Shown here: piece after piece, positions 3,030 through 59,870 of the stretch
How the letters are laid out: each line of letters begins with the position of its first letter
How positions within the stretch are numbered: position 1 is the stretch's first letter
Assembly: GCF_004010195.1 (NCBI RefSeq)
Contig: NC_057719.1
Span: 46,480,137-46,544,136 of the forward strand
Length of the DNA stretch: 64,000 nucleotides
Direction of reading: 5' to 3'
Source: Chiloscyllium plagiosum
Taxonomy: Eukaryota
Made by a program: the position numbers and the translations under genes
Notes under the pieces: model-generated
What the model was told of the DNA's origin: nothing
Database searches by the model: none
Seen by the model: only the letters and a program-made list of their open reading frames with translations

Positions 3030-4420
3030 GACAAACTAGACATTGAAAATTCTCGACATGGAAGTCAGAGCAAGTACCTGGTGATATCTGGCTGCAAGGG
3101 CTGTCCATGTGGATCAGCAGCAAACATATCTTAGGGCACGATCCATGGGCATCAGCCACATGCCACCCCTTGGAGGAAGTGAGAATTGCAGATGCTGGAG
3201 ACAGAGTCGAGAGTGTGGTGCTGGAAAAGCACAGCAAGTCAGGCAGCATCCGAGGAGCAGAAGAATCAAAGTTTTGGGCTTAAGCTCTTCATCAGGAATG
3301 AGGCTCACCTCACTTCACATGTCACCCCTTGTCCATAGATATTGGCATCAACCTATGCCAATCCTAATGACTATCATGGCTCATCTCCAATCCACTTGCA
3401 GAAGGTCAGAATCAAAGGCCTGCATTGCAGTGTGCAATGAGGATGGCTGGAAATGGGTTAGTGAAAGGAATAATAAGGGGAGGGTCAGTGTGAAAGGGAT
3501 CATGTGGGTTTGGGGGGGGTGGAAAGTGGTTAGGAACTGTTTGGTGACCAGGCAGAGCCTGGCCTGACAGTACCCACCATGAGCTATACAGTGAAATGCA
3601 ATTGGAAAATGGCTGGGCCAATGCCCCAGGGTGGATGGAGTCAGTGTCACTTTTATGGGTGAAAGCACAGGATCCATGTCTACTGGCTGTAAAGATATTG
3701 ATGGGGCAAATTCGTGAAACATGGGTTTACTAATTCCAGCTATATTCAATTTGCAATATTCATTTGTACATTTGCATTGCATGCATAATGAATGTACTAA
3801 TGTGTCAAAAGCTGGTCAAAGATGGATAGCAACATAGCATTGGTGCTGACTAATCTAACATTGTCATTTCTGATATAGAAGTTATCAACAAAACGGAGGT
3901 GAATGCTAGGCAAAAGCACCCATCACTTGTGGATCTTTTGAGAGCACTGTTGGACGAGGGAAACATTGCTGCATCATAAATCTTATAAGTGTGACAAAAG
4001 CCTCTGGTGAATGGAAAGGGGAGTGGTTTGGGTGGGTCTGGGATGGGAAGGTATTTACAGCAGCTTTTTGATGTAATGTGTTGGTCACTCGGCATTGTGG
4101 CACCTTCTCCAAGTTGGTATCTGTGCCTCAAGCAGGGCTGAGATGGAGCAAATGGTAAGGCTGCTGGTGATCCACCTGTTGCTCAGAAAACTCTGGGTGA
4201 GGACCTCCTGGTATAATCCACAGAGTGTGCTATATCATCCTAATGTGTTGTGTTCTGCATAATTGGACCTGGCAACGAGGTGATGTGATAGATGCTGAGG
4301 AGCTGGGGGATTTGGGGCAGTTGTCCAAGGAGAAGGATGGGGACATTGATCTGAAGGAAGCTCTCCTTGTAAATGAGAGTGATCATCTGCACTGAGCCCT
4401 ATAAGGCAAACAGGGCCTGA
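3030..4420 (+). pseudogene. Highly decayed Harbinger/PIF transposase (DDE_Tnp_4) remnant
   Basis: About 4210-4280 translates, with a frameshift, to YNPQSV..IILMCCVLHNWTWQRG, matching the Harbinger C-terminal Y.PE.V..II..CC.LHN motif. Weaker similarity at about 3610-3750. Confidence 0.45.
3173..3302 (-). mobile_element. Penelope-like element terminal-repeat fragment with degenerate hammerhead
   Basis: Same repeat as the 23.7 kb and 57.7 kb copies. Minus strand reads cCTGATGAagagcttaagcccAAAActtt (core G12 mutated). Confidence 0.8.
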
Positions 4421-6417
4421 TCGACATCCAGTTCCAATAGATGTGAGGTAGGTGCAGGAGACCATAATTTATTGTCAAGTCAAGATGCCAACTTTTGGTT
4501 GACATTGCAATTACATTTTCTTTATGTTCCCTTTTGCTGGCTGTCAATGAAAGCCCATGGTTTATCACAGGACTTGTCTGAATGCCTGTCAGTATGTTCC
4601 TACTGAACAATGACAAGATGTGGATGACTACTACACATTCTAGGTAAATGTCCATCTCTTCTTCTTTGCTAAAGGCAACTCCCCAAAATTCAGCTAGTTT
4701 GGGTATTCCAATGACTGAGTTCCTTATTTCCAAGTCTGATAAATTGAAGGTGATGTCTTTCATCTTCAGTATGTGAACTTAATCATATAGGTGTAAATAG
4801 AAACAGGAGATACAGGTTTCTTTGTACCTGATTGGTTTCCATTTTTTTTTAATGAAAGTATTAATTTCAATTCAGACTTGTTTTTATTTATTGATGGTTT
4901 CATGATAGTTGGTCAACCAGTGGACAGGTGATTACTGAAACTATTTGTTAAGTCAATGTCTTTTCATCTTTGAAATCATTTCACTCCATAAAATCAGATG
5001 ATGGAAGTTAAACATTGATAGTCCATAATTTATCACGATTGTGACAATCTCTCAGGACCATCATCATCTACATAAAAATCCACCAAGTATTGGGCTGAAT
5101 AGCCTATTTCGATGTTATAAGTATGCAATTCAACATTTTCAAAATATTTCAACGAATTTTGCACCTGGGAATAAGTGGGGAACGGATATCCTGCCATAGA
5201 GGAGTGTGGTAAGGTGTCTGGATGTAATTATGACTTTTGAAAAGACTTTTATAAGGAGAGAAAAATGAGCTAGGAAGCATTGAATGAGAGAGTTCAAGAG
5301 AATGGGCCTTACTTAGAACATTGACATTCTGTGTAAATATGATCAGTCTTCAGAAAAGCAGAAACACAAAAATAAATGTTACTTTATAGGCATGACGGCA
5401 TTAATAACCTTTTCCCAAACCGTGCTTTTTTATGGTTACACTCTCCAACTTTGGTGTGATTGTAAAATGGTTTGCTGGAATGCCACAGCGATAGCGTTAA
5501 TCTGGAGTTGAGGCTTGACTTTTTCAGCAAGAAGCAGTGTGAGACCAGCCAACTGTGGAGGCAATCCCAAGACCTATACTTCAACACCATATGGAATTTG
5601 AGGGAAGGTTATAATAGGTTTAATGATTGCTACCTCTCCTGCTTACCTTTCTCAGTCTACCTGAATTTAATTTATATGGATAGACAGTGTAGGTGCTGCC
5701 ACCTTCTGGGAGATGGGCTCTACACATGTATCTAATGGCATTATGGGCCACTTTCCCGGAATTCCAGACAGTAGGGAGCAATACAGTGTTCAGACCAGTA
5801 AATGCTATATAGATAGAGTGCAAGATTGAAACAAGCATCTCTCGAAAATAAGATAAAAGTAATCATAATGTAAATTAATATAACCACTTAGAACCTATTA
5901 TGAGTGAGTACGTTTAAAAATAAAATATATTTCATAGCCAAGAGATCTGTACTACACAAAAGATTCGATATATAACACTATGATGTTTGTCTACTGCCTT
6001 TCAAATATAGAAGAATATTTTACATAGTTTTGTTTTATCAGAGTAAAAAATGCAAAATTGGACAATGTATATATTGGTGAAATCTATATTCCACATTTTA
6101 TAGGAAGCAAGGGACCTCGAAATAACACCTTCATTCCAAGAGGCGGAATCTTACATTTTTGGCACATCCCCAATAGGATTTCCTGCTGTTTATTACCAAA
6201 TACCTCTTTAACTACTCACCTCAGCCCTCCGGTGACCATCACAACTGATCCTATCCCTATCTTACCATGTGTATTCTCAGAGCAACTCATCACTCGATGG
6301 TTATCCACTGAAAGACCAGTTTCTCTTTCACCTGCACCATCTTGAAAAGGCTGCTGTGCATTCAGATGAACACCAGCTCATTTAAGGTTGTTTGCTGAGG
6401 ATGTCTGAGAGGAGTTG

Positions 6418-9400
6418 TAAAATAGAGGAGCAGAAATAGACCATTTGATCCATGGAGACTGTTGCATCATTCAGTCATGGCTGATATGTTTCTCAACTCC
6501 ATTATCCTCCCTCTAACCCTTGATTCCCTCGCTATCTTAAATTCACTCAATGACTTGACCTCCTCAATGTTCCGCAGGAAGGAGTTCCACAGATTCACCA
6601 CCCTCTGGCTGAATTCCTTGTCATCTCATTTCTAAAGGACAGTCCTTTCTCTCTGAGGTGGTGCCGTCAGGTCCTAGTCTGTCCTACTAGTGGAAACATT
6701 TTTTCCACATCCACTCTATCCGGGCCTCTTATTATTCTATCAGCTTCAGTGAGATCACTCCTCATCCTTCTAAACTCCATTGGGTACAGACTCAGAGTCC
6801 TCAACCATTCCTGATGTGACAAGCCCTTCATCCCTGGGATCATTCTTGTAAACTTCCTCTGGAACCCCTTCAAAATCAACACATCCTTCAAGAGATGTAA
6901 GGCACAAAATTACTCACAATATTCCAAATGCGATTTAACCAGAGCCTTACACGGCCTCAGCAGTAAATCCCTGTTCTTGTATTTGTGTTCTCTTGAAATT
7001 AATGCTAACATTGCTTTTATCTTACAAGATACCAACTGAACCTGCATGCTAGCCATAAAAGTATTCTGAACTAATACTCCTAAGTCCCTTTGTGCTTTAG
7101 ATTTCCAAAGCCTTTCCCATTTAGGAAATAGTCTACACCTTTATTCTTCCTATCAAAGCGCATAACTCTCCTGGTCCATCCAAGTCCTTTCGCAGCCTCC
7201 TTGCTTCCTCAGCGCCATCTCTTCCTCCACCTATTTTTCTGTGTCATCTGCAAACTTAGCAACAATGCCTTCTGTTCATTCATCCTGATTGCTGATGTGT
7301 AATGTGAATGGTTGTGATCCCAATACTGATGCCTGCAGAACTTCACTAGTCACTGGCAGTCATTCCGAAAAAGACCCCTTTATCTCCACTCTCTGCTTTC
7401 TGCCAGTCAGCCAATTCATTATCCATGTCAGCCCCTTGTTCCTAACACCATAGCCTCTTATTTAGCAGCCTCACATGCAGCACTTTGTCAAATGCCTTTT
7501 GGAAATCCAAATTGATCATGTCTACTGGCTCACCTTTATCTAACTTGCCTCATTACCTCCTCAAATAATTCAAAAAAATTTGTTAGGCATAACCTCCCTT
7601 TGACAAAGCCATGCTAACCTAGCCCCATTTTTATCATGGACTTCCAAGCACACCGCGATCTCATCCTGAATAAATGGGCTCTAAAATATGACTGGGAGAA
7701 AGTGAGGATTGCAGATGCTGGAGTCAAAAAGTGTGACACTAGAAAAGCACGGCCAGTCAGGCAGCATCCAAGGAGCAAGAGAGTCAATGTTTTGAGTATA
7801 AGCTCTTCATCAGGAATGCTATGCTCAAAACATCGATTCTCCTGCTCCTTGGATGCTCCTCCTCCTGACCAGCTGTGATTTTCCAGCGCCACACTTTTTG
7901 ACTTTAAATTTTACCAATGATCAACATTAGGCTAACTTAAACACTGTTGTTACATTAGTAATTTGCCAGTACTTTGGGATGGTCCCAGGCTTCAGTGATT
8001 TCTGAAAGATCACACCAATGCCTTGACAATCTCCTCAGCTATCTCCTTCAGAATTTTGGAGTGTAGTCTGTCCAGTCCAGGTGATTTATCCACCTTCAGA
8101 TCTTTCAGCTTCTCCAGCACCTTCTCCTTAGTGATGGCCACTACACTCATCTCTGTCCCCTGATTCTCGTGAAGTTCTGGTATGCTACTTGTGCCTTCTT
8201 GTATACTATTGTGAAGACTGATGCAAAGTACCTATCCAGTTCCTTTGTCATTTCTTTGCTCCCCATTACTAGTTCTCCAGTTTCATTTTTCAGTGATCCA
8301 ATGTCTATTCTGACCTCTCTTTGACCTTTTATATATCTGACAAAATTCTTGCAATCTTCTTTTTTATTACTAGCTGGCTCATATTTCATCTCCCTCCATC
8401 CCCAATATTGCTTTCATAGTTAATCTCTGCTGGTTTTTTCAAAGGCTTCTGGCTTCACACTAATCTTCACAACATTGTATGCTTTTTCTTTTGTTTTTAT
8501 GCTGCCCCTGAACTTCCCCTGTCTGCCATGCTTGTCTTATTATATTCCATCTTCTTGAGATGAATTTCCGTTGTACCTCTGAATTACCCCAGAAACTCCT
8601 GCCTTTGCTGTTCTACCATCATCCCTGCTAGATTCCCCTTTCAATCAACTCTGGCCAGCTCTTTCCTCATGTCTTTGTAGTTACTCAATTTTACTCAATT
8701 GTAATAGCCTTACATCCTCCCTCTCAAACTGCAGGGTGAATTCTATCATATTATAGTTACCACCTCCTAAGGGTTCCTTCAGCTCAAGCCCCCTAATCAA
8801 GTCCAACTCACTACACATCACCAAACCTAGAATTGCCTGTTCCTTGGTGGACTCTACCACAAGCTGCTCCAAACAAACCATCTCGCAGATTTTCTACAAA
8901 TTCCTTTTCTTGGGATCCACTACCAAGCTGATTTCCCCAGTCCACCTGCACATTGAGGTCCTGCATGATTATTGTAATAGTGCCTTTCTAACATGCCTTT
9001 CCTATCTCCTGATTTGTTTTCTGCCCCACATTCTAATCACTGCCATGAGGCCTGTACGCAATCCTGTCAGGCTGTTTTTCTCCTTTGTGGTTCTTCAACT
9101 CAACCCACACAGATTGTACGCCTTCCGACTTTATATCACTTCTTACTATTGATTTAATTTCTTAAGAACAAGGCATCCCTACCCCATCTGCCTTTCTGCA
9201 TGTCCTTTCAAAAGGATGTGTATCCTTGGATATTGGGTTCCCAGTCCATGTCTCTGTGGTACCCAGAACATCGTACCTGCCAATTTTGATCTGCACGGCA
9301 AGCTTATTTACCTTGTTTTTGTTAATTGCATGCATTTAAGTACATCATCCTGCATTGATTTCCCCTTTTCTCATAATTGTCTCCTTTTCTGCTGTGCCTG

Positions 9401-9450
9401 AAGTTAGATTCCTAACACTTTCCATACCCTTTGTCCTATTACTTTCATGT
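6418..9450 (-). mobile_element. CR1 LINE, decayed ORF2 (endonuclease to RT) plus 3' UTR
   Basis: Peptides QRKFTRMIPGMKGLSHQEWLRTLSLYPMEFRRMRSDL, KEDCKNFVRYIKGQR and QAILGLVMCSELDLIRGLELKEPLG..NYNMIEF; many stops and frameshifts. Confidence 0.92.
7695..7903. mobile_element. Fold-back PLE terminal-repeat insertion nested in CR1
   Basis: gagaaagtgagg...ttcatcaggaatg followed by an inverted copy ctatgctcaaaacatcgattctcc...cacactttttgact. Confidence 0.85.
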
Positions 9451-15078: not shown

Positions 15079-15084
15079 TGAATA

Positions 15085-15625: not shown

Positions 15626-16044
15626 TGACACTTACAGACAGGATCTTTACATTTACCTGAATACTGCAGTGAGTGTTGGAAAAAGGACATGTCCTCTCTT
15701 TCCCTGACATTACTGTGCCCTGCCAGAATTTCCCCTGGAGATGCTGTTTCCACAATTTGATGAAAGCTGGGGCCAGGAGAGTCTGGGAAAAATGCACAGA
15801 AGCATCAGGTCGGGAGAATCTTCATGGATGTGCATTGGCACCACTGACAAGATCCATGCTCATGTGCTGAGGACTCTTTTTCCTGAAACATTTAAAGCAG
15901 CAACACTGTCATTGACAAGTAGAAGTGCTGCTGATCATAAATCAAAACGGAAATATTTTCCTGTTGCCTTGGTGTGAATTGGTAGGGAATAGTTAAAGAG
16001 AAGCCTTTGTTAGATTTTTCAAATAGTGACTGTCAGACGGTTGG

Positions 16045-16235
16045 AGAAAGCGAGCTCTACAGATGCTGGAGATCAGAGTTGAGTGTGTGGTGCTGGAAAA
16101 GCACAGAAGGTCAGGCAGCATCCGAGGAGCAGGATAATCGACGTTTTGGGATTCCCAATGAAGGGTTCCAGCCTGAAACGTCGATTCTCCTGTTCTTCGG
16201 ATGCTGCCTGACCTGTTGTGCTTTTTCAGCACCAC
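16045..16235. mobile_element. Fold-back PLE terminal-repeat insertion with 16-bp TSD
   Basis: Inverted arms; TSD actgtcagaYggttgg at 16029-16044 and 16236-16251. Confidence 0.9.
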
Positions 16236-16655
16236 ACTGTCAGATGGTTGGCAATTTATTTCAGCAGATTGGAGAATGATTTTCCAAAGTGCATCAGAAA
16301 TTCAGTTACAGAGAGTGTTAGGGAACACTGTTAATTTGATGGAAATGACAGAGTAAGCAGAAGCTGTCTGCAAGCCCATTGGGAGCAGGGATTAACTCAG
16401 GTGCATTTTGATACATAAATACTCCCCCCTCTGTAAAGATAACTAATTACTTATAATATTTAAATGAGGCCATTGGAATTAGATTTTCATTGGTATTTAA
16501 ATTCGACATCACGTGCACTGGGTTCCTGAGCTTCCTGAAAATCACCATTTAAAGGAAAATGAGAAGATTATGCTTAGAATGCCTTACATTACAACATATT
16601 TCTTCTGCTGCTGTTTAATGATATTGCTTTTTATAGATAGCCTCCCATTTTACAG

Positions 16656-19600
16656 CATAGAACAAAGAACAATACAGCATAGGAACAGGCCCTCCAAGCC
16701 TGCACTGCCACATTTTGGCCTTCCATACTAAAATGGTCTTCACTTACAGGATCCATATCTCTTTATTTCCTTGCTATTCATGAATTCGTCCAGGTGCATT
16801 TTGAATGCTGTTATTGTGTCTGCTTCGCCAACTCCTCTGGCAGCACCTTCCAGGCACTAGCCACCCTTTGTGTGAAAACATTGCCCCACACATCTCTTTT
16901 AAAGATGCCCCCTTCCTCACATCTTGAATCTATGTCCCCCAGCAATTGACTCCTCCACCCTGGGAAAAAACCCTGATACTTTCCACTCTATCCATGCTTT
17001 TCACAATCTTATAAACATCTGTCACCCTTTAACCTCCTGCATTCCTGAGAAAACAAACCCAGTCGAGCCAACTTTTCTTTATAGCTAAAATCCCCCATAC
17101 CAGGCAACAGCCTGGTAAACCTTTTCTGTACCTTTTTCACATTCAGGTGACCAGAACTGTATGCAATATTCCAAGTGTGGCCTAACTAAAGTTCTATAAA
17201 GTTGCAACATAACTTGTCTATCCTTATACTCAATGCCCTTTCCAATGAAGGCAAGCATGCCATAAGCCATTTTTACTCCCTTATCTATCTGCACTGCCAC
17301 CTTCAGTAATCTGTGGACTTGCACACCCAGATCCCTCTGCATATCAGTACACTTAAAGATTGTGCCATTCACTTATAATTTCCACCTGTGCTTGACCTTG
17401 TAAAATGCATCACCTCACATTTGTCTGGAATAAACTCCAACTCCCATTTTTCTGCTCATGCCTCCAACTGATCTATATCCTGCTGTATCCTCTGACAATC
17501 CTTCTTATTATCTGCAACTCCATCAGTCTTTGTATAGTCCGCAAACTTACAAATTAGACCAGCTATGTTTTCCTCCAAATCATTTATGTAGATCATGAAC
17601 AGCAGAGATCCCAGCACTGATCCCTGTGGAACACTACTGATCACAACCCTCCATTCCAAAAAAATCCTCCACTGTTACCCTCTGTCTCCTATGTCTAAGC
17701 CAGTTCATTCCTGAAGAAGGGCTCATGTCTGAAACGTCGATTCTCCTGCTTCTTGGATGCTGCCTGACCTGCTGCGCTATTCCAGCAACACATTTTCAGC
17801 TCTGTATCCACCTTGCCAGCTTACCCTGATACTATGTGACATCACCTTTTGTACCAGTCTGCCACAAGGGATCCTGTCAAAGGCTTTACTGAAGTCAATA
17901 CAGACAACATCAATCTCTTTTCCCTCATCAATCGTCTTTGTCACTGCCTCAGAAAACTTAATCAAGATAGTGAGGCACGGCCACCCCCTCACAAAACCAA
18001 GCTATCCATCGCTAATAAGTCCATTTGTTTCTCAATGTGTAGATCTTGTCCCTTAGAATCTTTTCCAATAATTTCTCTACCACTGATGTGAGACTCACAG
18101 GCCTGTAATTTCCAGGATTATCCCAGCTACCCTTCTTAAACAGTGGGATAACATTGGTTCTTCTCCATTGGTTCTTCTGGGACCTCACTTGTGGCCAAAG
18201 AGGATACAAAGATATCTGTCACTGCTCCAGCAATTTGTTCTATTGCCTCCTTCAATATTCTGGGGTGTTATCTACCTTAATATTTTTAAGACGCATAATT
18301 CTTTTTAATAGCAACTTGGTTTAGAAGTTTTGACACTCTCTTCCCTGAGATCATTCTCCATCAATTCCTTCTGTTTGGTGAATACCGACACAAAGAATTA
18401 ATTTAGGACATTACCTACCTCTTCTGGTTCCACCCATGGATTCCCTCCTTTGTCCTTGAGTGGACCAACCCTTTCCCTGGCTACCCTCTTACTTGTTATA
18501 TATGTATAAAGTCTTTGGGATTCTGCCTAATCCTGTTTGCTATCAACTTTTCATGACCCTTTTATCCCTTCTAGTTCCTTGTCTAAGTTCTTTCCTACTT
18601 ATAAACTTCAAGAGTTTCATCAGTTCCCATCCTCTGAGAGCTATATATGCTTCCTTTTTCTTTCTGACCAAGGTCATAACATCCCTGGTCATCCAAGGTA
18701 ACTTGCCACTTTCCTTCATTCTGACAGGAATGTGACACTCCTGATCTCTCATCAACTGCCATATGAAATACTCCCAAATGTCCGATGTAGATTTACCCTC
18801 AAACAGCCACTTCCAATCAAAATTCTCCACTTCCTGCCTAATATTGTTGTAGTTCACCTTTGCCCAATTTAACATCTTGACCTGAGGACTGCTGTCGTCC
18901 CTATCCAAGAGTATTTTAAAACTCACAGTATTATAAGTCACTACTCCTGAAATGTTCCCCCAACTGAAAATTTACTCACCTGGCCAGGCTCATTTCCCAA
19001 AACCAGGTCCAGTGCAACCCTTTCTCTGGGTGGACTGTTTATATACTGTGTCGAGAAACCCTGATGAATGGTCCTTACAAATTCTGCCCCATCCAAGCCC
19101 CTAGCATGAAGTGAGTCCCAGTCAATATAGGGGAAGTTAAAATCACCCATCACGACAAACCTGATGATTTTACATCTTTCAAGATCTGTCTACATATTCT
19201 CCCCCTATCTCCCGCTGGCTGTTGGGAAGCCTGTAGTATACCCCCAGTATTGTGATTTTACCTTTCTCATTCCTGAGTTCTACCCATATTGTCTTACTGA
19301 ACAAGTCCTCTGATGTATCCTCCCTCAGTACAGCTGTGAGATACTCCTTTATCGGTAATGCAACTCCCCCATCCCTTTTACATCCCTTTCTCTCACACCT
19401 GAAACATCCAAATCCCAGGACATTCAGCTCCCAGTCCTGTTCCTCTTTCAGCCAAGTCTCTGAATTCACAATAATGTCATAGTTCAAAGTACTAACCAAA
19501 GCACTAAGTTCATCTACCTCTTCTACAACACTTCTCACATTGAAACACATGCATTTCAGACAACCTCTCCTGCTCTTTTCAGCAGCGTTTCCCTGCCTGT

Positions 19601-19975
19601 TCTTGCTAATGTTTGCCTTGGTTTCTACCTCTCCCTCAATTTATGCAGTTACTGCTCGACTGCTCTCATTCCCATCCCCAACCACACTAATTTAAAGCCT
19701 CCCCAACCACTCTACCTAATATGTCCCCAAAGACATCAGTCCCGGCCCTGCCCTGTGCAGTTTGTACAAGTCTGACCTCCCACAGAACTGGTCCCAATGC
19801 CTCACAAATTTGAAACCTTCCCCCTCACACCATTGTTTCAGCCATGTGTTCATCCTATACATCCTGCTGTTTCTACTCTGACTAGCTTGTGGCATTGGTA
19901 GTATTTCTGAGATAACTACCTTTAAGGTCCTTCATCTCAACTTTTGTCCTAGTTCTCCATATTCTGCTTTTAGGA
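16656..19975 (-). mobile_element. CR1 LINE: near-complete decayed ORF2 plus probable ORF1 remnant
   Basis: APE endonuclease (CFNVRSV..DIIVNSETWL..GGVALPIK..GVYYRLPN, MGDFNFPYIDW) and RT (NYRPVSLTSVVEKLLE, IDFSKAFD, VPQGSVLG, KFADYTK, LVRPHLEYC). Confidence 0.95.
17706..17802 (+). mobile_element. PLE terminal-repeat fragment with hammerhead core, nested in CR1 RT
   Basis: CTGAAGAagggctcatgtctGAAACGTC at 17711-17738 interrupts the CR1 sequence ccagtt|ctgtatcca. Confidence 0.88.
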
Positions 19976-20512: not shown

Positions 20513-21045
20513 TAAATAAAAATGCAACATAATATACTCAGATTAGATACAAAGAATGAGTCTAATGAAAGGTAAAAGTTAAAAAGATATACAGATCAGT
20601 CTCTATGGGTTGTTTAAGAGAATAGACAGGAGAATGTTGCTTGTTAAACACTCAATTTCAAGATTCTAGGTTTTGCAGGTTAGTTGAAATTCTTTTTTCC
20701 TGTTTCATTTTGACTGACCTGTTGGCTAGCTAACTTCGGGCACTCAGTGCTACAGAGTCCTCTCCCTGCAATGAGGGGATGACTAGTGGATGGTTCATCA
20801 ATTGTGCTGAAACCTAGTCTAGTACCCACAAGCACCTTAGCTCACTGGAAAACCTTTCATTAGCACTCAGACCATGACTGAACTGGCCTTTAACCCCGTT
20901 CTTGTGTACTCTTGAACGTGGCAGATAGAATACATGCCTCTTGCTTAGAGTGTTGATAGTGCCCAGGAGATTACAGTTCAGTCTGTAGTGCATTTCTTTC
21001 ATTTTACCTCCATCCCTTTGAAGCTTCCTGGCCACTTTACCAGGT

Positions 21046-21380
21046 GTACAAAAGTTAAAAATCACACAATACCAAGTTATAGTTCAACAGGTTTATTTGG
21101 AAATGCTAGCTTTCGGAGCACTGCTCCTTCATGAGGTAGCTGTGGAGTAGGATCATAAGACACAGAATTTATAGCAAGAGATTACAGTGTCATGCAACTG
21201 AAACAATATATTGAACAAACCTAGGTTGCTCTGTCTTATGATCCTGCTCCACAGCTACCTGATGAAGGAGCAGCGCTCTGAAAGCTAGTGCTCCCAAATA
21301 AACCTGTTGGAGTATAACCTGGTGCTGTGTGATTTTTAACTTTGTCCACCCCAGTCCAACACTGGCACCTCCACATCATG
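21046..21380. mobile_element. Fold-back PLE insertion of a second family with two hammerhead cores and a 10-bp TSD
   Basis: Inverted arms about 21046-21162 and 21232-21349; CTGATGAaggagcagcgctctGAAAGCTA at 21259-21287; TSD tttaYcaggt at 21036-21045 and 21381-21390. Confidence 0.88.
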
Positions 21381-23684: not shown

Positions 23685-23885
23685 GGAAAAAGTGAGGACT
23701 GCAGATGCTGGAGATCAGAGCTGAAAATGTGTTGCTGGAAAAGCGCAGCAGGTCAGGCAGCATCCAAGGAGCAGGAGAATCGATGTTTCGGGCATGAGCC
23801 CTTCTTCTTATGCCTGAAATGTCGATTCTCCTGCTCCTTGGATGCTGCCTGATCTGCTGTGCTTTTCCAGCATCACATTTTCAGC
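23685..23885. mobile_element. Fold-back PLE terminal-repeat insertion with perfect 15-bp TSD
   Basis: TSD tattcattttatttg at 23670-23684 and 23886-23900; inversion point inside the hammerhead (agcccttcttc|ttatgcctgaaa). Confidence 0.93.
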
Positions 23886-23984
23886 TATTCATTTTATTTG
23901 TCAAGATGAGTTTAAATAGAATATATAAACAGAAAATGCATTCACAAACACACAAAACAACCAGGTCATCAACAAGTTTTAATA

Positions 23985-36209: not shown

Positions 36210-36279
36210 TTTGCTGTGCTTTTCCAGCACCACACTGTTCGAATCTGATCTCCAGCATCTGCAGTCCTCACCTTCTCCC
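36210..36279 (+). mobile_element. PLE terminal-repeat 3' stub
   Basis: tgctgtgcttttccagcaccacac...tctgatctccagcatctgcagtcctcaccttctcc. Confidence 0.75.
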
Positions 36280-36361
36280 ACCTTGATGTATACGTTAAGT
36301 ACAGTTGAAAATGCAATTAGAAATGAGAAAACTTGAGTCAGAGAGAAAGATGATCGAGAAT

Positions 36362-36495: not shown

Positions 36496-36508
36496 ATAAA
36501 AGATATAT

Positions 36509-36813
36509 GGGCGGCACGGTGGCACAGTGGTTAGCACTGCTGCCTCACAGTGCCAGAGACCCGGGATCAATTCCTGCCTCAGACAACTGCCTGTGTGGAG
36601 TTTGCACATTCTCTCCGTGTCTGCGTGGGTTTCCTCTGGGTGCTCCGGTTTCCTCCCACAGTCCAAAACTGTGCAGGTTAGATGAATTAGCCATGCTGTT
36701 AGGTGAAGGGGTAAATGCAGGGGAATGAGTCTGGGTCGGTTGCTCTTTGGAGGGTCGGTGTGGACTTGTTGGGCCGAAGGGCCTGTTTCTACACTGTAAG
36801 TAATCTAATCTAA
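36509..36813 (+). mobile_element. HE1-type SINE
   Basis: Full head-to-tail match to the other copies; (taatc)n tail. Confidence 0.92.
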
Positions 36814-36921
36814 GAACAATATAAATTGGAAGATAGAAGAGACAAAAGGAAAATAAAAGAAAGAAAAAAATGGAAAGGGATAAAGGAAAACAAAGAGAAA
36901 TGGAAATGGAAGAGAATGTAC

Positions 36922-37983: not shown

Positions 37984-37989
37984 TGAAAA

Positions 37990-48731: not shown

Positions 48732-48861
48732 ATGGAGGTGGGTACTGTAGATGCTGGAGATTACAGTCAAGATGACAGTGGTGCTGGAAAAGCACAGCAG
48801 GTCAGGCAGCATCCGAGGAGCAGGAAAATCGATGTTTTGGGCAAACACCCTTCTTCAGGAA
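48732..48861 (-). mobile_element. PLE terminal-repeat insertion with perfect 14-bp TSD
   Basis: TSD atccaaaaagctag at 48718-48731 and 48862-48875; minus strand cCTGAAGAagggtgtttgcccAAAAcatc. Confidence 0.9.
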
Positions 48862-51764
48862 ATCCAAAAAGCTAGTCTCGCATTGAGCTACATAGTTTAA
48901 AAGGTTTGTCCTTCTGCTTTTACATTTTGTTAGTAAATTTTAAAACTTATTTTTGTCTCCTGGATCTTTCTGTCTTAATCCAATCTTACTCTAATTAACT
49001 TTCCCTGAGCACATGATTTTGTGTTCCAAAAGTCTAGCTTACACTTCCAGCTTTAGACACTTGGCGGGGGGAGGGGGGTGGGATCATCATGTTCCCATTT
49101 CCAGTGTGGTAGGGCTTGAATCTTCCTGACACATTTCCTCCCCCTAGTTTGGTTTTTTGAAGGTGGCCAGCATCAGATAAATCGCTTGTTCAGTTGTGGG
49201 TGGTAGCCAATTGAAATAATCAAGACCCCAATTATTAATACTCGCCAAACATTTTGCCTCTGTTGGACTGGTCTCCCGTTGTATAGGGAGTCACCACCTG
49301 AATGGAGGTAGCTTCCTTAGAACAGATTGGTGGCCCATCAAAGCCAGAGAATTCCTTTTCAAAGAGGTGGTCTTTGGCAAGGAGAGTGCCCACTAGCCAA
49401 ATGCTTCCACCAGAGATGTTATCTTTCCAAATCCTGAGAACTATCAGCTTGCCATCTCTGAGAGCTATTATTAAATTTATCTAAGCCAAAAGCCCTTCCA
49501 TTTTGATGTGCCCTCCCAGTCTATGAACATTCTTGAGCAGTGCCAATTCTCACACTGAAGCTGCCGTGACTGGGCATGCAGCAGCAGGAATCCATCCACT
49601 ATCCTTAATTGGACGACAGACTCACAGATCCCCAATAAGGGGGCCACCTCTGGGAAAATAGATCCTCTGATCTGGTTTCTGTCAGGTACAGGCCGAACAG
49701 TCAATTTTATCTTGACATCGGGATCTCAATGCCCTGTGTATCCTAGGAAGGATTCTGATTGGATAAGGCAATTACATTGTTGCTTGTCTTATTTAAACAA
49801 GGGGATTGTCAATTAGAGGGCAATGTATAAATATCGTTAAAAGGTTCGTGCTCACGTAAGTGAACTGAAGGTACTTTTCATTTGCAGCTGACCACAAAAT
49901 ACAGGCCAAAGGTTTTGTGCCCCAATGAAAGATGCAGCAAATTATGGTGTTAATTATATTTAGCAAGAGCACAGCAGTCATCACATTTTGTTCCATCAGT
50001 TTTATCAAACCATGGGCAAATGCCAAAGTAATGAATCATGGATAATTTTGTACCCTGGAACTAGGTTGAGACTATGCAGATTCATTTCACTGATATCACT
50101 TACTAATCATAAGTTAGAGACTGTAAATCCATCAATTTGAGCTAAGGGTGAAATATGAGTTCTATTTCAGTGTACTATACATGAAAAAATAATCAATCAT
50201 GTTTATATCTGCAATAGTATGGGGTAGAAGTTGACTCAGTACAACACGCACACCAAATGGCAGTTGTGGAGACTATCTAAAGAGCACCTGATGATTTCCA
50301 GAACTGATATTGGATAGGGCATGTTCTGACATCAGGGCAGCCAACATAATTAGGTCTCTAATGTATGCTAATTAGGTCAGTAAAAAATTCTTTGTCTCTG
50401 AAGAGAGAAACTGGGATGGTCTGATTGAAGCAGATTAAACCGTGCTCTGAACGGGTTTACAGTCTACCAAGTAAACCTACTCAGAGTTAAAATCCACCTG
50501 GTTATCTGCACAAACTCTGTAGTTTAACCACACTTAGCTTGGATTCCTTTCAGCTATTGACAGTGGGATTTAAATCACGCCTAGCCGATTCATTAACCTG
50601 TTTGCTGATTTTGGTCAGTGCATTTATCAACAAACCACAATCGTGATGTATTAATATGCACTTTGAGAAAGGAATATTTGTTTCACTTTCTCCGTATATT
50701 TAATGTACCAAGCTGGATATGTGTACAAAGATATGTCGTCTTAAATTAGCTTCAACTCAAATGCCTAATTACAGTTTTCAAATGAGAGTACAATCTTTGA
50801 GAGAGTCTGGATTTAGTTTTACCGAGTGTTCCTACGGAACAGTGCCAGATTTTAAAGAAAAGCTTGCTCAAAGAACATCTGGATTTTTCCTTAAAAAAAA
50901 GTATCACCAGGCATTTTATGGTGTCTATAATGTCAAAAATCTTCCCAAGTGTTTCAAAGCAGAAAAAGTTATCAGTGGCAGAAGTGAACTCCCAAGAGAA
51001 GCAAGACAAAGGAGTAATGATGAAAAGTTAATAATACTCTCGGGGCTATCAAAGATTTGGCTTCTTGGTTTTAATTTTCCGGTGTAAAGACTTAGTTGTG
51101 ATAAGCAACAAGTGCTTTCACTCACTGAGTGAAATGACCATTGGAATTAAGTTGCCAACTTTGCTTGGGAGAATCCTGAATTTGGCTATTTGTCTTCAGA
51201 GTGCTGTTGCTGGCAACTCTGGAGAAGAGTTCATCATAAGGTCAAGTCATGCGCAAGCATAGTCCGAGCATTAGCACTTGCAATAAGTTGGCTTCGCACC
51301 CTGCACCCCCCAAACCTGTTATAATTCCAGTTACATTGGTGCCAATTGGAAGAGGTTGCTTGGTTTGCCAAGAGTGCAAGGTCAGTGAATTTACAATGTG
51401 TGGCTGGTGGTTACAGAGCAGCTGTGGAGCAGGGAGTAGGAGAACGGATTGGAATGGAGGCAAAAGAATTTATATGAGACAGTTTTGCCAGGACCCAAGC
51501 TGGAAGTATCAGCAATTTTCTGAAGCTAAAAAGGAACACGTCAGTGTACTGCATGTTTGATGCAGCCAGTCTGCGGGGTAAATATATACCTGTCTGTTTC
51601 CTTTCACAATGCCACTTTGATTATCTTTAACTTGCGGGGGCGGTGGGGGGGGTAGTGGAATTACCATTTTAAAAAACTGTTGAAAAGAATTACATCGGGA
51701 CCCAGGAGAAATTGTTTTAATGCATGCTTTATGCCTGGGTGCCTTCATGACCTGAACACTACAT

Positions 51765-52627
51765 TCAATGACACTGAAGTTGGTGGAGTAATGGACAGTG
51801 TGGAAGAATATGGCAGGTTTCAGGGGGACTTGGATAAACTGCAGAATTGGGCTGAGAGATGGCAAATGGAGTTCAATGCAGATAAATGTGAGGTGATTCA
51901 CTTTGGGAAGAATAACAGGAAGGCAGAATACTGAGTCAATGGAAAGGTTCTTGGTAGAGTGGATGTGCAGAGGGATCTTGGAGTCCATGTACATAGATCC
52001 TTGAAAGTTATCACCCAGGTTGATAGTGCTGTTAAGAAGGCAAACAGTAAGTTAGGTTTTATTGATAGAGGGATTGAGTTCCAGAGCCGTAATGTCATGC
52101 TGCAACTATACAAAATGCTAGTGCGGCCGCACTTGGAATATTGTATACAGTTCTGGTCGCCCATTACAGGAAGGATGTGGAAGCATTGGAAAAGGTGCAG
52201 AGGAGATTTACCAGGATGTTGCCTAGTCTGGAGGGAAGGTCTTATGAGGAAAGGCTGAGAGACTTGGGTCTGTTCTCATTGGAAAGAAGGCTAAGAGGGG
52301 ATTTGATGGAGACATACAAGATGATCAGAGGATTAGGTAGGGTAGTCTTTTTCCTAGGATGATGGCGTCAGCTTGTACGAGGGGGCATAGCTTACAAATT
52401 GAGGGGTGATAGATTTAAGACAGGTTCTTTATTCAGAGAGTGGTAAGGGTGTTGAATGCCCTGCCTGCCAATGTAGTTAACTCAGCCACATTAGGGGGAT
52501 TTAAATAATCCTTGGATAAACACATGGATGATGATGGAATAGTGTAAGGGAATGGGCTTAGATTAGTTCACAGGTCGGCACAGCATCGAGGGCCAAAGGG
52601 CCTGTTCTGTTCTGTAATGTTCTATGA
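51765..52627 (+). mobile_element. CR1 LINE RT 3' portion
   Basis: DTEVGGVMDS..WAERWQMEFNADKC, QRDLGVHVH..LVRPHLEYC, VQRRFTRMLP; tail ttctgtaatgttctatg. Confidence 0.95.
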
Positions 52628-54992: not shown

Positions 54993-55115
54993 GGTAAAAA
55001 CAATGACTGCAGATGCTGGAAATCAGATTCTGGATTAGTGGTGCTGGAAGAGCACAGCAGTTCAGGCAGCATCCGAGGAGCAGTAAAATCAATGTTTCGG
55101 GCAAAAGCCCTTCAT
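54993..55115 (-). mobile_element. PLE terminal-repeat insertion (subfamily variant) in Gypsy
   Basis: ggtaaaaacaatgactgcagatgctgg...tttcgggcaaaagcccttcat; truncated inside the hammerhead core; possible 5-bp TSD gataa. Confidence 0.85.
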
Positions 55116-55579
55116 GATAAACTTACCCGCTTGTTTTACTGAGACCTATGATCGTTATTCAAAAACTTCAATGTTGGAAATTCCACAATGGCTCTTGTCT
55201 TCTTGGCTCCACTGCGATGCCTAGTTCTTGGATAATGTGTTGTAGGAATCTACTCATCTACAGAACTGGCATTTCACATTTTGTTTAGGGCCTAGATTGT
55301 ATATTTCTGGTCCTCGGGTCAATTTAATGCTTTGTTTACTACGTACCAGGATGTCACCACATGGCACATGGTCCGCTGTTCCCCATCGAGATTTTGCTCT
55401 TTGGAAAAATCTCTCATGCAAAGAACATCCCAATGGTTGAAGGAATATCACCAGAATGATGTAATGAATGTAGTCAGCAATCTTGACTCTTAGTTTGAGG
55501 GTATCTGGCAGAACCCACTGTTTGGTGTCCAGTTGTATGAAAACTTGTTTTGTTGACAATTTTGATAAACTACTGTTTT

Positions 55580-55900
55580 GATTAGATTACTTTCTTACAG
55601 TGTGGAAACAGGCCCTTCGGCCCAACATGTCCACACCGACCCGCCGAAGCGCAACCCACACAGACCCATTCCCCTACATTAACCCCTTGACCTAACACTA
55701 TGGGCAATTTAGCGTGGCCAATCCACCTAACCTGCACATTTTTGGATTGTGGGAGGAAACCGGAGCACCCGGAGGAAATCCATGCAGTCACGGGGAGAAT
55801 GTGCAAACTCCGCCACAGAGAGTCGCCTGAGGTGGGAATTGAACCCGGGTCTCTGGCACTGTGAGGCAGCAGTGCTAACCACTGTGCCACCATGCTGCCC
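55580..55900 (-). mobile_element. HE1-type SINE
   Basis: Reverse-complement full-length match to the 25.5 kb copy. Confidence 0.93.
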
Positions 55901-57322
55901 ATTCTAATGAAATAGAATAGATTTCTGTTCGAACATCATTGACTAACTGATTGAGATCCATACACAAATATAGTACTCCATTTGTCTTGGGAACAATTAC
56001 TATCCCGAGTACTAATGTGTCAGCTGTATCACTGATGATATAACCCCACTTTCATTCATGATAACTGACTGAGATTTTACGTTTTCCATTGAAAGATGGG
56101 AACTTTTCCTGGGTGTGTCCATGCAGATAAATTTAGCATCTTATTACAGTGTAATGTGATACTCCTGCTTCCATTTTACTACACCTTTGAATAACTTTGG
56201 AAATTATTGCTCGTTGCTCGTTGATTCTATTGATTCTCGGAATGCTAAGATCACTGACTAAGCCTCACCTCTTGGTGCATTAAATGCAAAAGTATGCATC
56301 ATACTATGTAGTTTTTTTTTGTTCCACACAGTATTATCAGAACATCGTGAGCTAATAGATCTACAGCAGATAGAAACATGTTGATTTGACGGTATCGCTC
56401 CTTTGCATAACTGAAGCCTGAAGCCACTCTATGGGATAAGGACTGTCACTCCCACTTCAGGACTCATTGTTGGCCTTCCATATAATCAAGTGATAGAAAT
56501 AATGGAAAAAGTCTCTACTGGAGTCCATAGGGATGCTTACTATCACGTCTGACTGATTTGGGTTGGATACTTCATTTTCTCCACCTCTTGCTATGGAAGT
56601 GTTCTGATCTTTTGCTTGTAATCTTCAGAATATTGCTGGCCGGTGGCTAAGCTTAGAAATCTTCTAAAGTTGTTTCTCCTGCCCATCGACATCTTCCCAA
56701 AATCAAAGTCTTTGATTTTGCCTGCTGTTTGAGTCTTCTCTGTTTTAACTCAACTGTACCTTTGAAGTTTTGAGATCCTGTCCTTCCTTTGAGGTTCCCT
56801 GTGAATTTTTATTTCAACTTCAGATCCTTGTTCCTTAGTTGCTATCACATGTAATCCTGCACTTTAGTTCTTTAAGCTAACTGCATATTTCTAGGCTATG
56901 AGCAATTGTCTTTGTAGCTGCTTACTCATGAGGTATCCTGAATAAGGATCTTCAACTGTTTATGTAAAATAATACTCCTTTATTTGCATCAATAGGTCAA
57001 TGCCTACAAAGCAGAGTGTGGCAACTACAGAGATATCACATTTCTGTCCATAGCAGGAAAAATCTTTTCTCACATCACTCTGAACAGTCTCATCATTGTG
57101 ACAGGAATAAATCTACCAGAGCCTTGGTGTATCATTTGCTCAGGTTACAGCATTATGGACATGAGACGACAAATGCAGGAAAATGCCTCAAGCAGAACAT
57201 AGCCCTTCACTTCATCTTTGTTGACTTTGCAAAGGCACAGTTAATAGGTGGTCCTCTGAACAATCCTGGTACAGTATAGTTTGTCAACAACAGATGTCAA
57301 GAGCACACCCATGTTCCATGAT

Positions 57323-57407
57323 GATTTTCAAAAGTGTCAAAGCATCTTGCATTGGCAATCAATCTTGGAGAGATTAGCCCTTGCTAAATTCCAGCACTCT
57401 TTAACCA
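57323..57407 (+). repeat. 85-bp direct copy of 58991-59075
   Basis: gattttcaaaRgtgtcaaagc...ctctttaacca, one mismatch. Confidence 0.95.
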
Positions 57408-57494
57408 TGATGGAATGATGGGCTAAGTCGTTTTAAATGGCACCTCTTTAATCTGTTCTTCACCTGTGTCATTAGCCATGCTATCATGCAACGT

Positions 57495-57718
57495 TTTCAT
57501 ACAGAGAGTGGTTCCTCTGTGAAATGAACTGCCAGAGGAAGTGGTAGATGCAGATACAGTTACAACATTTAAAAGACATTTGACAAGTACATGAATAGGA
57601 AAGGTTTAGATGCATAACAACTAAACACAGGCAAATGGGACTGGTTTAGTTTGGGAAACCTGATTGGCATGGATGAGTTGGACAAAGAAGTCTGTTTCCA
57701 TGCTGTATGATTCTATGA
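57495..57718 (+). mobile_element. CR1 3' fragment whose tail is split by a PLE insertion
   Basis: gaactgccagaggaagtggtagatgc...ctgtatgattctatga; tail resumes at 58808. Confidence 0.88.
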
Positions 57719-57795
57719 GGAGAAAGTGAGGTCTGCAGATGCTGGAGATCAGAGCTGAAAATGTGTTGCTGGAAAAGCGCAGCAGGTCAGGCAGC

Positions 57796-57988
57796 ATCTA
57801 CAAACCGTAGTAGAACCGACCGACTCCCACAGCTACCTGGACTACACCTCCTCCCATCCTGCCCCCTGTAAAACGCCATCCCATTCTCCCAATTCCTTCG
57901 ACTCCGCCGCATCTGCTCCCAGGAGGGCCAGTTCCAAAAACGCACAACCCAGATGGCCTCCTTCTTCAAGGACCGCAACTTCCCCCCC
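57796..57988 (+). pseudogene. Penelope-like reverse transcriptase C-terminal/thumb fragment
   Basis: IYKP/TDSHSYLDYTSSHPAPCK/AIPFSQFLRLRRICSQEGQFQKRTTQMASFFKDRNFPP, matching the PLE YxKPT...YL...S.HP...K..IP.SQ..R..RICS motif. Confidence 0.9.
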
Positions 57989-58708
57989 TTCAATGCCAGT
58001 TCGATTTTTCTTCATGGCTGGAGGCAATCACGAAAGTCCGCATGGCCCTAGATATTCCGTGATCCCTGACACTGGTGCCATCTTCAAAAGGTCAATGGGC
58101 ACACAGTTGAGCTTTCTCAGTTTGGAGCTGTTCTGCATAGTTTACCGTGAGCATGGCAGATAAGGGGCAAATACACCACGGTTTGTCAACAAGGGTACGG
58201 AGCTCCCGGTGGATGGGCTTGTACAGAGGGGGACCATTCTCTTCCCAGAGGGAAGGCTCACTGTATTCGAGCCTTTTCGGGCACAGGCCCTTCTTCAGGA
58301 ATGGGCAGAGAGTGTTCAGCAGGAGAAGATAAAAGGTAGGGAGGAGGGACTTGGGGGAGGGGCGTTGGAAATGTGATAGGTGGAAAGAGGTCAAGGTGAG
58401 GGTGATAGGCCAGACTGGGGTGGGGGCAGAGAGGTGGGGAAGAAGATTGCAGGTTAGGAAGGCGGTGCTGAGTTCGATGGATTTGACTGAGACAAGGTAT
58501 TTCCCCTCCCCCCACCTTGTCTCAGTCAAATCCATCGAACTCAGCACCGCCTTCCTAACCTGCAATCTTCTTCCCGACCTCTCCGCCCCCACTCCCGTCT
58601 GACCTATCACCCTCACCTTGACCTCTTTCCACCTATCACATTTCCGACGCCCCTCCCCCAAGTCCCTCCTCCCTACCTTTTATCTTAGCCTGCTGGACAA
58701 ACTTTCCT

Positions 58709-58746
58709 CATTCCTGAAGAAGGGCTTATGCCCGAAACGTCGATTC
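58709..58746 (+). ncRNA. Minimal type I hammerhead ribozyme motif with intact core
   Basis: CUGAAGA-A-GGGC(uuau)GCCC-GAAAC-GUC at 58714-58741; predicted cleavage after C58741; very short stems I and III as in PLE hammerheads. Confidence 0.8.
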
Positions 58747-59768
58747 TCCTGTTCCCTGGATGCTGCCTGACCTGCTGCGCTTTTCCAGCAACACATTTTC
58801 AGCTCAGGTATGATTCTATGACTCTATGAGGGAATGTATCCTTGATATTGTCTTGACAGCACACTCTTTGACCCATGACATATCAGTGTAAAACCAAACC
58901 TTGCAAAAAAACTCATCAAAGAAACCCTTTTGGCCCATCATTGTGCCCTGACAGATCACAGCCAGAGAGGTTTGCAGATCTTAGCTGACCGATTTTCAAA
59001 GGTGTCAAAGCATCTTGCATTGGCAATCAATCTTGGAGAGATTAGCCCTTGCTAAATTCCAGCACTCTTTAACCAGACAAATCCAACAAATGTTGATTGC
59101 CTTAAATACCCTGGAACCATTATCTCTAACAACAGTTTGCTTGATGTAGAGATATCAGCTAGGATATTAAGGTGAACCAGACAGTCAGAAGGCTTCATAT
59201 CAGATTACTAAACCACCACAGCATTGGACAATCCACAAAGATTCAAGATGTACATTGTTCTTGTACATTGTACAAGATGTACATTGCTCACTTCTGTCAT
59301 TTATAGCTGTGAGTGCTATACCGTAAACACATGAGACAGTTCAAACCTTATTCTCTGTTGTCAAGACCAAATCTAGAAATGTTAGGCTGAGCCTGGTCAG
59401 CAAGTATTGAGGCAATGTTCCTGAAAGCCCAACCCCTCTGGGTAAGACACTTAGAATTGCATTCTGAGATTGTTGCTGTATGAAGAACGAGTACCTGGTT
59501 AAAGAAACCAAGGTCAGCCACTTAAACACCGCAAAGATATCCTCATGGAAAACCTGAATTTGTGTAGCATCAGGAGTTGGACGAATCAGTGTGAGAAGAA
59601 ACTCACTGGAGAGTCATAACCTGTGGGACCTTTGTTACTTTTGAAAAGGATCAATTTCAACATTTTGTTGCTGTCTGTGAATATCATCGTCAAGAAGCGA
59701 TTGTCCATGTTGCAAAATATTAGTTATAATGTCCTAGATGCTTCTGACTCTGTGAGCTCAGACTGGGA

Positions 59769-59870
59769 TTCTAATGAAGAGTCATATTGGACTCAAATCG
59801 TTTACTTTATCTCTCTCTTAACAGATAGTAGCAGATCTGCTGAGTTTCTCCAGTATTTTATGCTTTCATA
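59769..59870 (+). mobile_element. Old third-family PLE terminal repeat with degenerate hammerhead
   Basis: CTAATGAaGAGTCatattgGACTCaaatcgtt followed by ...acagatagtagcagatctgctgagtttctccagtatttt. Confidence 0.65.

Follow-up and report, generated by a model that had tools for sequence, protein, structure and literature searches.

Hammerhead-bearing insertions of Chiloscyllium plagiosum are pieces of Neptune-type Penelope-like elements that share a discrete 5' boundary

The window analysed here, a 64,000-nt stretch of the Chiloscyllium plagiosum genome (NC_057719.1, positions 46,480,137 to 46,544,136, forward strand), harbours 11 insertions, all of them pieces of endonuclease-bearing Penelope-like elements (PLEs). 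The initial annotation had listed 11 short insertions from about three families; each was found where first placed, and they belong to families A (nine loci), B (the insertion at 21046) and C (that at 59769). Ten are 67-337 bp long, in line with the 70-335 bp, ORF-less pieces first described, and the eleventh, at 57719, is a single 1.09-kb composite that holds RT-coding DNA. The report of TSDs at several loci holds as well: clear TSDs of 14-16 bp flank the insertions at 3173, 16045, 23685, 48732 and 57719, the insertion at 21046 has a candidate TSD (9/10 matching), and none was found at 7695, 17706, 36210, 54993 or 59769. In what follows, unit positions are numbered from the first C of the CUGANGA core, set to 0.

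Single family A units include 3173..3315 (minus strand, -8..+124, with tail, 16-bp TSD at 3157-3172 and 3316-3331) and the tail-less 17705..17804 (plus strand, -6..+93), whose complete core at 17711 has G-U pairs in stem II. Two others, both on the minus strand, are of an older A subfamily: 48732..48861, which starts at -3 and carries the tail (14-bp TSD, 48718-48731 and 48862-48875), and 54993..55115 (+3..+126), which lacks CUG. A stub at 36212..36282 (plus strand, +59..+124) has no hammerhead. Three further A insertions are head-to-head pairs. In 7695..7903, which is old and has a decayed core, a tail arm (-6..+124, minus strand) faces a tail-less arm (+13..+90, plus strand); 16043..16241 combines a tail arm (+17..+124) with a tail-less arm (about -4..+86) between TSD copies at 16029-16044 and 16236-16251; and in 23685..23885 (tail arm +2..+124, tail-less arm +11..+86, 15-bp TSD at 23670-23684 and 23886-23900) CUGA is absent from both arms. 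The family B insertion, 21043..21379, is likewise head-to-head, with a tail-less arm (-100..+93, minus strand) whose core is broken and a tail arm (-32..+122, plus strand) with a complete core at 21259. Family C, which is old and related to A, is represented by 59769..59870 (plus strand), a unit that begins at position -4 and has decayed at both G5 and G12. The composite (57719..58807, 14-bp TSD at 57705-57718 and 58808-58821) consists of an inverted tail arm (57719-57798), an RT-thumb coding piece (57814-57988), captured flank (57991-58274), an inverted arm (58275-58498) and a sense arm (58499-58805). The latter contains the only undecayed minimal hammerhead of the window (58710..58745, plus strand), the first base of which, 58710, is position -4.

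This hammerhead comprises a stem I of 2 bp, a U-U mismatch and 1 bp, followed by CUGAAGA, an unpaired A, a 4-bp stem II and GAAA-CG-UC. The annotation had seen all or part of the core in every insertion except that at 36210. The motif is indeed far above chance, since a minimal-hammerhead descriptor gave 85 matches in a sample of ~1.3 Mb versus 1, 1 and 0 in three shuffles, with 4 matches in the window; however, a complete core with both stems is present in only 3 of the 11 insertions (17711, 21259 and 58714). Elsewhere, G12 is replaced by A (at 3295, 7813 and 48858) or an intact CUGANGA is missing (16045, 23685 and 54993). Rfam covariance models, the check suggested at the outset, yielded no hammerhead match, whether across the whole window (E<=1) or within 58690-58770 (E<=10). 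On head-to-head hairpins, Rfam returned only sub-threshold miRNA-like matches; these hairpins mimic miRNA precursors in model searches. Base pairs were counted by anchoring on the core in 114 family-assigned cores. Stem II pairs are present in 107-111 of them, the unpaired A in 112 and the stem III palindrome, ACGU in family A and AGCU in family B, in 101. Pairs 1 and 2 of stem I are kept in 98 and 102 of the 114 and change type between families, pair 3 is kept in 49, and few independent lineages underlie these counts; most family A copies have the U-U mismatch (55/89 cores). Stem II was said to differ between copies while keeping its pairing, and pair changes do occur between families and within one A sub-lineage, but three of the five variants quoted differ only in the loop. 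Folding does not predict the active-type dimer as the structure of lowest energy. These are the known minimal type I motifs of PLEs, carried as originally proposed by PLE terminal-repeat units with a palindromic stem III.

Families A and B are Neptune-type, with RT and GIY-YIG parents in the genome. Upstream of both units, the parents encode RT motifs, a CxxC linker and a GIY-YIG endonuclease (YIGET motif); the RT motifs give a match to Pfam RVT_1 (E=1.5e-4) that stays below the cutoff of that model. Since most long copies in the assembly contain N gaps, the parents were read without any intact full-length element or ORF. A CX2-5CxxC linker between RT and endonuclease defines the Neptune clade in the available text of PMC8557442, and both parents have it; an assignment of family B to the Poseidon type was dropped once the linker was seen in the B parent. 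Besides a PLE-type RT and a GIY-YIG endonuclease at the C terminus, the elements have the pLTR unit at both ends, an inverted 5' copy and an optional 30-40 bp tail, as do endonuclease-bearing PLEs. The unit lies at either end of the full element, 3' and 5', and at the 5' end it runs straight into the N-terminus of the ORF (L270 and L271); in L270, the 5' unit extends to at least -245. In a 1.26-Mb sample of the genome, we counted ~190 insertions per Mb, and A and B segments make up ~6% of the sampled bases. The very high copy number first suggested is borne out, with roughly 0.5 million A and 0.16 million B copies as extrapolated from the sampled blocks, but there is no local swarm: 50-kb blocks of the sample contain 4-18 insertions versus 11 segments in the window, the density of which is ordinary for this genome.

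The ends of the copies are not spread evenly. At the 3' side they form two classes ~35 nt apart (+85..+94 and +120..+126), and at the 5' side they pile up at -4/-3, 4 nt upstream of the core. Among young A arms, 30 of the 61 at risk stop in [-10,0) and 19 of 80 uncensored arms at -4/-3, with 27 stops at -5..-1 versus 1.3 expected. The peak is found in single copies (31/87 in -10..+10) and in hairpin arms (69/106); end calls have an uncertainty of a few nt, and arms of one hairpin are not independent counts. Copies from the 5' region of the element end at the same place: among 30 selected on +131..+260, the start lies at -10..+9 in 16, further downstream in 12 and at -17 and -31 in 2, and 13 are partial tandems whose downstream unit begins at -8..+3. 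Family B has a weaker, broader peak (11/47 in [-10,0)) and no good initiator match. A third of the typed young arms (24/72) run past -20, and many long copies cross -4 seamlessly, so that some templates must have a 3' unit, or a jump can be exact. Raw reads from an independent run show loose ends with mixed flanks at the same -4 base (162 reads), while two read placements revealed no site where many molecules begin and no spliced joint. A splice acceptor at -4, as in the D. virilis intron, was discarded, as no AG precedes -4 and no common upstream exon is joined; a second 5'-end peak, at -150, proved to be one re-copied composite. The annotation had named a continuous series of random truncations as the finding that would speak against its proposal. 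The ends are discrete, and the boundary is likely to be the 5' end of the autonomous element's RNA, a transcription start that we infer solely from DNA ends.

Head-to-head copies obey a simple rule: the 35-nt tail is on exactly one arm in 51/53 A and 19/20 B hairpins (70/73), against an even 45/45 split of units with and without it among A singles. The tail-less arm reaches at least 8 nt further 5' than the tail arm in 14/51 A and 9/19 B hairpins, which fold-back of one cDNA cannot produce, so that many hairpins need two cDNAs. The arms overlap by 1-3 nt at the junctions. Same-strand pairs number six among all insertions and are mostly complex long copies. True non-autonomous derivatives do exist, those found being long rearranged composites that are re-copied in trans.

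Taken together, we consider it likely that the short insertions are hammerhead-plus-tail unit copies of autonomous Neptune-type PLEs, made by RT that starts inside the front unit and runs off the 5' end of the RNA. Instead of constituting a ribozyme SINE in their own right, they are probably by-products. Position -4, at a TCAKTY motif that we take to be initiator-like, would be the transcription start of the element RNA. A protein dimer would nick both target strands 14-16 bp apart, and one cDNA would be primed at each RT start site on uncleaved RNA, reaching the RNA end after ~95-130 nt. Joining of such a run-off cDNA to the target would give a single unit, joining of two by 1-3 nt of microhomology a hairpin, and a cDNA jumping to a new template site a partial tandem and the pLTR structure. 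In this scheme, the RNA would begin directly with the hammerhead, the cleavage of which would be unnecessary for making these copies. For an anole PLE in vitro, the available text of PMC11167929 describes extension on both strands, two internal RT start sites, a dimer that is predicted and cleavage that is dispensable.

We consider it unlikely that the copies arose by ordinary 5' truncation, starting at the 3' end and without any run-off, with stalling or end-joining favoured at the hammerhead by its structure, a bound protein or palindromic microhomology. Such truncation would account for the smooth shortening of long copies (hazard ~0.02-0.08 per 10 nt upstream of -20), for the drop of first-look candidates towards the 5' end (26,033, 17,677, 15,537 and 4,653) and for the overlaps at hairpin junctions; nevertheless, a structural stall is expected 3' of the stems (+19, +31), whereas the peak is at their 5' base, it recurs in TSD-bounded single copies and at head-to-tail junctions, and 5'-region copies almost never go beyond -10. 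No more probable, in our view, is that an internal promoter drives transcription of the short units themselves, which are then copied again in trans as a SINE-like population of hammerhead RNAs. The short length of most copies (137/173 N-free A insertions are <300 bp), RT start sites that lie within the unit, the D. virilis promoter internal to the pLTR (PMC2377424) and trans-copying that is real here (one composite has an identical spacer in 40/40 scored copies, and the composite of the window has a sister copy) would all suit such a population. Against it, no short subfamily with its own variants emerged among the six young haplotypes with at least five arms in the 1.26-Mb sample, all of which include long copies (8/22, 5/11, 5/9, 1/7, 1/6 and 3/5); 52 short singles share no 5' flank, 73 hairpins show 70 distinct end combinations, and reads on the unit derive from both strands and continue into unlike flanks (93%), as expected of passive read-through.

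An origin as non-LTR retrozymes, in which hammerhead cleavage frees unit-length or circular RNA that is then reinserted, is largely refuted, and we regard it as highly improbable even though vertebrate retrozymes with the same motif type and a PLE origin have been described (bioRxiv 10.64898/2026.07.22.740005). Neither the window nor the 1.26-Mb sample contains head-to-tail arrays of short units or a complete hammerhead in at least two consecutive tandem units; partial tandems carrying 5'-region DNA exist and are not unit arrays. Hairpin arms bear the hammerhead on opposite strands. Cleavage-defined DNA ends were discarded, since only 1/250 arms starts at the cleavage site, +28, and 3' ends do not pile up at +27. 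One of the 30 5'-region copies nominally aligned from +28, with its first bases mismatched. The independent non-autonomous retrozyme/SINE-like system suggested as possible in the initial annotation thus finds no support in unit arrays, young haplotypes, flanks or cleavage-site starts.

Both the elements and the hammerheads they carry belong to a known kind. With endonuclease-bearing PLEs of Neptune type, as described in the available portions of PMC8557442 (Craig et al. 2021) and PMC3846280 (Arkhipova et al. 2013), they share an RT, the CxxC linker, a GIY-YIG at the C terminus, strong 5' truncation, partial tandems, an inverted copy at the 5' end, a 30-40 bp tail at one end only, pLTRs that contain a hammerhead, solo pLTRs and the capture of host DNA. 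They differ in the very high copy number of minimal units, in TSDs of 10-19 bp versus 8-10 bp in the rotifer examples, and in a 5' boundary that falls sharply on the hammerhead's first base and a near-strict rule of one tail per hairpin, two features for which no quantification was found in those portions. The minimal hammerheads known from PLEs (Cervera and de la Pena 2014, PMC4209133) agree with ours in the type I core, the unpaired nucleotide that precedes stem II, the G10.1-C11.1 pair and the palindromic 15.2-16.2, and are also mostly single motifs from truncated PLEs, with opposite-strand pairs 100-700 bp apart; here, in contrast, stem II is shorter, at 4-5 bp, most A copies carry a mismatch in stem I, only the youngest subfamily having a perfect one, and the motif begins at the inferred RNA start. 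The anole element PAc (Frangieh et al. 2024) resembles ours in its two internal RT starts, which define the tail, and in the use of uncleaved RNA as template but, unlike the elements here, belongs to the Poseidon clade and has an ORF that starts inside the hammerhead; the available text of that study contains no proposal that solo units or hairpins originate by run-off at the 5' end of the RNA. Animal non-LTR retrozymes are likewise PLE-derived and non-coding with a type I hammerhead, but are defined by tandem units each with a hammerhead, whereas the copies here are dispersed monomers or inverted pairs with TSDs. Within the literature covered, outside which lie most subscription papers, Repbase entries and supplements, we found no run-off or strong-stop model for PLEs and nothing describing a run-off footprint for shark PLE hammerheads.

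The origin in PLEs of pseudo-LTRs, inverted ends and tails and the role of the hammerhead are presented as open in the available text of PMC8557442. The very large set of young copies in this genome provides sharp and countable end rules, namely that the 5' boundary is fixed, that a hairpin has a single tail and takes two cDNAs, and that cleaved RNA is not used, and the short copies expose a likely step in how PLEs copy themselves. A broader reading, to which we give an even chance, is that PLEs copy by a strong-stop-and-jump cycle of a two-headed enzyme. Both subunits would initiate immediately behind the hammerhead that lies at the front of a single RNA and would run off at the 5' end; longer copies would need a template jump, and the capped first 32 nt of the RNA would be where the hammerhead acts. 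The solo units, hairpins and partial tandems of this genome, hundreds of thousands in number, would then be intermediates frozen in place and would account together for pLTRs, inverted ends and the tail. The end rules turn the question of PLE copying into direct predictions for 5'-end mapping and for the existing in vitro system.

All 11 insertions listed in the initial annotation were found in the window. Nine belong to family A of the Penelope-like element (PLE) terminal units that bear a minimal type I hammerhead, one (21046) to family B and one (59769) to family C, an old relative of A with which it has downstream sequence in common. Simple head-to-head pairs of unit copies, hereafter called arms, make up four of these loci (7695, 16045, 21046 and 23685), and 57719-58807 is a composite, a single insertion bounded by a target-site duplication (TSD), with an inverted pair inside it and a stretch of RT-coding DNA. 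The composite sits at the end of a LINE-like piece (57491-57718) and is flanked by an 85-nt direct repeat (57323-57407 and 58991-59075, 1668 nt apart, 99% identity). Decayed LINE-like RT and endonuclease fragments, which we take from their motifs to be CR1/L2-like, occupy 16753-17663, 18543-19640, 36814-37951 and 51768-52331, and a dispersed family of ~300-bp repeats (25493-25799, 34996-35280, 36507-36813, 55577-55902 and 63645-63748) presumably resembles a tRNA-derived SINE. A 236-nt inverted repeat unrelated to the PLE units (586-821 and 1362-1597, 540 nt apart, 99% identity) is either a recent inverted duplication or an assembly artefact.

Upstream of unit A, loci harbour RT motifs, a CX4CX2C linker and a GIY-YIG motif; unit B is preceded by a second ORF, ~30% identical to the A-side ORF and with the same linker. 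Judged from their sequences by the linker criterion given in PMC8557442, the A and B parents are Neptune-type PLEs. At two loci elsewhere in the genome, L270 and L271, the unit is directly continuous with the ORF N-terminus and is therefore also the 5' end of the element. There, a pyrimidine tract ending in AG (1190-1201 in both) lies directly behind the tail, the extra ~35 nt at the 3' end of some units, and ahead of the ORF start. It could be a candidate 5' UTR intron acceptor, as in D. virilis Penelope; no spliced joint at this acceptor was found in reads. In L248 and L267, a Pro/Thr-rich repetitive stretch precedes the RT in the ORF N-terminus, and many long copies terminate there.

For the census, we drew 26 50-kb blocks from 26 large contigs (1,260,303 non-N bases) of the 3.56-Gb assembly. 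Insertions with a 3' end numbered 185 for A and 58 for B, i.e. ~147 and ~46 per Mb, which extrapolates to ~0.5 million A and ~0.16 million B copies if the sample is typical. Their segments occupy 5.2% and 1.2% of the sampled bases, respectively, and the insertion density of the window is average relative to the sample. Searching the genome with 39 residues of RT thumb encoded in the window gave 26,033 first-look candidates, a figure that is not a copy number. Most N-free A insertions (137/173) are shorter than 300 bp, and 3' ends fall into two groups ~35 nt apart.

The 5' ends are non-random and pile up in [-10,0), 0 being the first C of CUGANGA, which argues against purely random truncation. 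Among young A arms, 30 of the 61 at risk stop in this interval, 19 of 80 uncensored arms end at -4 or -3, and 27 stops fall at -5 to -1 against 1.3 expected, the two arms of one hairpin not being independent. The interval holds 70/144 stops for all A arms and, more weakly, 11/47 for B; by eye, family C copies retaining their 5' part also tend to start at -4. Upstream of -20, truncation is smooth. The predicted cleavage site, between +27 and +28, is not an end point, with only 1 of 250 A arms starting at +28.

The simplest reading is that -4 is the 5' end of the element RNA. Thirty copies selected solely by the unique region behind the tail started at -10 to +9 in 16 cases; 12 began downstream, two of these at N gaps, and the remaining two at -17 and -31. 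Thirteen of the thirty show a piece that extends to +267 to +669, followed by a head-to-tail unit starting at -8 to +3, and nine of these units begin no more than 2 nt from the A at -4. An assembly artefact is ruled out by 162 loose ends at the -4 base, with mixed flanks, in raw reads of run X19 (~2% of the run). The surrounding sequence fits an initiator consensus. An internal pLTR promoter was demonstrated in D. virilis (PMC2377424), and an Inr-like motif is described for a rotifer pLTR (PMC3846280). Counting against an RNA start at -4, neither of two mapped-read sets showed RNA molecule starts, L270 reaches -245, and of 72 typed young arms, 24 span -4 seamlessly and pass -20.

The hairpins combine one tail arm with one tail-less arm in 51/53 A pairs (one of the 53 being an A/B neighbour and one doubtful) and 19/20 B pairs, and no pair has two tails; A singles are evenly split (45/45). 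TSDs of 10-19 bp flank 39/53 A pairs and 20/90 singles, versus 0/300 random sites. In 14/51 A and 9/19 B pairs, the tail-less arm exceeds the tail arm on the 5' side by 8 nt or more. Each arm of such a pair contains sequence absent from the other, the upstream part in the tail-less arm and the tail in the tail arm, so fold-back of one cDNA is excluded and two cDNAs are needed. At 12 diagnostic sites, the arms of 15 young pairs are identical in 12 cases, with one difference in two and several in one, which suggests that both arms derive from one RNA or one source. This pattern agrees with that reported for an anole PLE, in which both strands are extended from two internal starts, with a predicted dimer and uncleaved RNA as the template (PMC11167929). 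PLE hairpins at 7759-7860, 23751-23855 and 58428-58584 gave sub-threshold Rfam miRNA-precursor matches; such copies could trigger false miRNA calls or give real small RNAs.

The proposal of a non-autonomous mobile RNA holds for long rearranged derivatives, in which trans-copying does occur in this genome, and is not supported for the short units. In the sample, no lineage was made up of short copies alone: long copies occur in every one of six young haplotypes, the 52 short singles have no flank in common, and 73 hairpins show 70 distinct end combinations. One trans-copied composite joins a piece of the endonuclease region in inverted orientation, a foreign spacer of 142 nt (L143:7585-7726) and the last 275 nt. 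All 40 scored spacer matches (of 64 candidates) are identical, giving at least 40 copies on many contigs, and the same junctions occur in 30/30 loci (L272-L301); this is a very young rearranged family A derivative and a true non-autonomous PLE derivative. The window composite shares 785 bp (in 57991-58807) at 99.87% with L202, a separate TSD-bounded insertion on another contig. This segment comprises a captured multi-copy flank, an inverted arm and a sense arm, and the flank DNA also adjoins a PLE copy in L201. Since the window and L202 copies cannot derive from each other, both were probably copied from a third, rearranged source.

A minimal-hammerhead descriptor matched 85 sites in the 1.3-Mb sample versus 1, 1 and 0 in shuffles; an Rfam scan gave no hammerhead match. 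Complete cores in the window are limited to 17711, 21259 and 58714, the remaining loci being truncated or devoid of G12 or G5. Among 114 family-assigned cores, collected without requiring pairing (22 unassigned of 136 were excluded), stem II pairs are intact in 107-111. In stem III, A cores have the palindrome CG and B cores GC; stem I pairs switch type between these families. The third stem I pair is U-U in 55/89 A cores, a mismatch of the older, commoner subfamilies, and stem I is perfect, with 4 bp, only in the youngest A subfamily (L054:6351-6386 and related copies, <1% divergence). One older A sub-lineage carries a compensated A-U pair in stem II.

In the mechanism that we propose, transcription would start at -4, and dimeric twin priming would be followed by putative run-off and then a template jump. 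Cleavage, if it plays any role, would take off the first ~32 nt of the RNA; the active-type hammerhead dimer differs from the predicted minimum-energy fold.

Published work describes minimal hammerheads in Neptune, Poseidon and Xena PLEs, single motifs by the thousand that stem from truncated PLEs, and pairs on opposite strands (PMC4209133). Inverted copies, tails, solo pLTRs and non-autonomous PLE derivatives have likewise been published (PMC8557442, PMC3846280). Retrozymes, as defined in bioRxiv 10.64898/2026.07.22.740005, consist of tandem units, unlike these insertions. The element and its hammerhead motif are real and of a known kind, rather than a new mobile RNA system. The literature searched contained no description of a fixed 5' boundary or run-off model for PLEs, which older subscription papers, Repbase notes or supplements may hold. 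What these data add is a footprint, in quantitative form, of how PLEs replicate.
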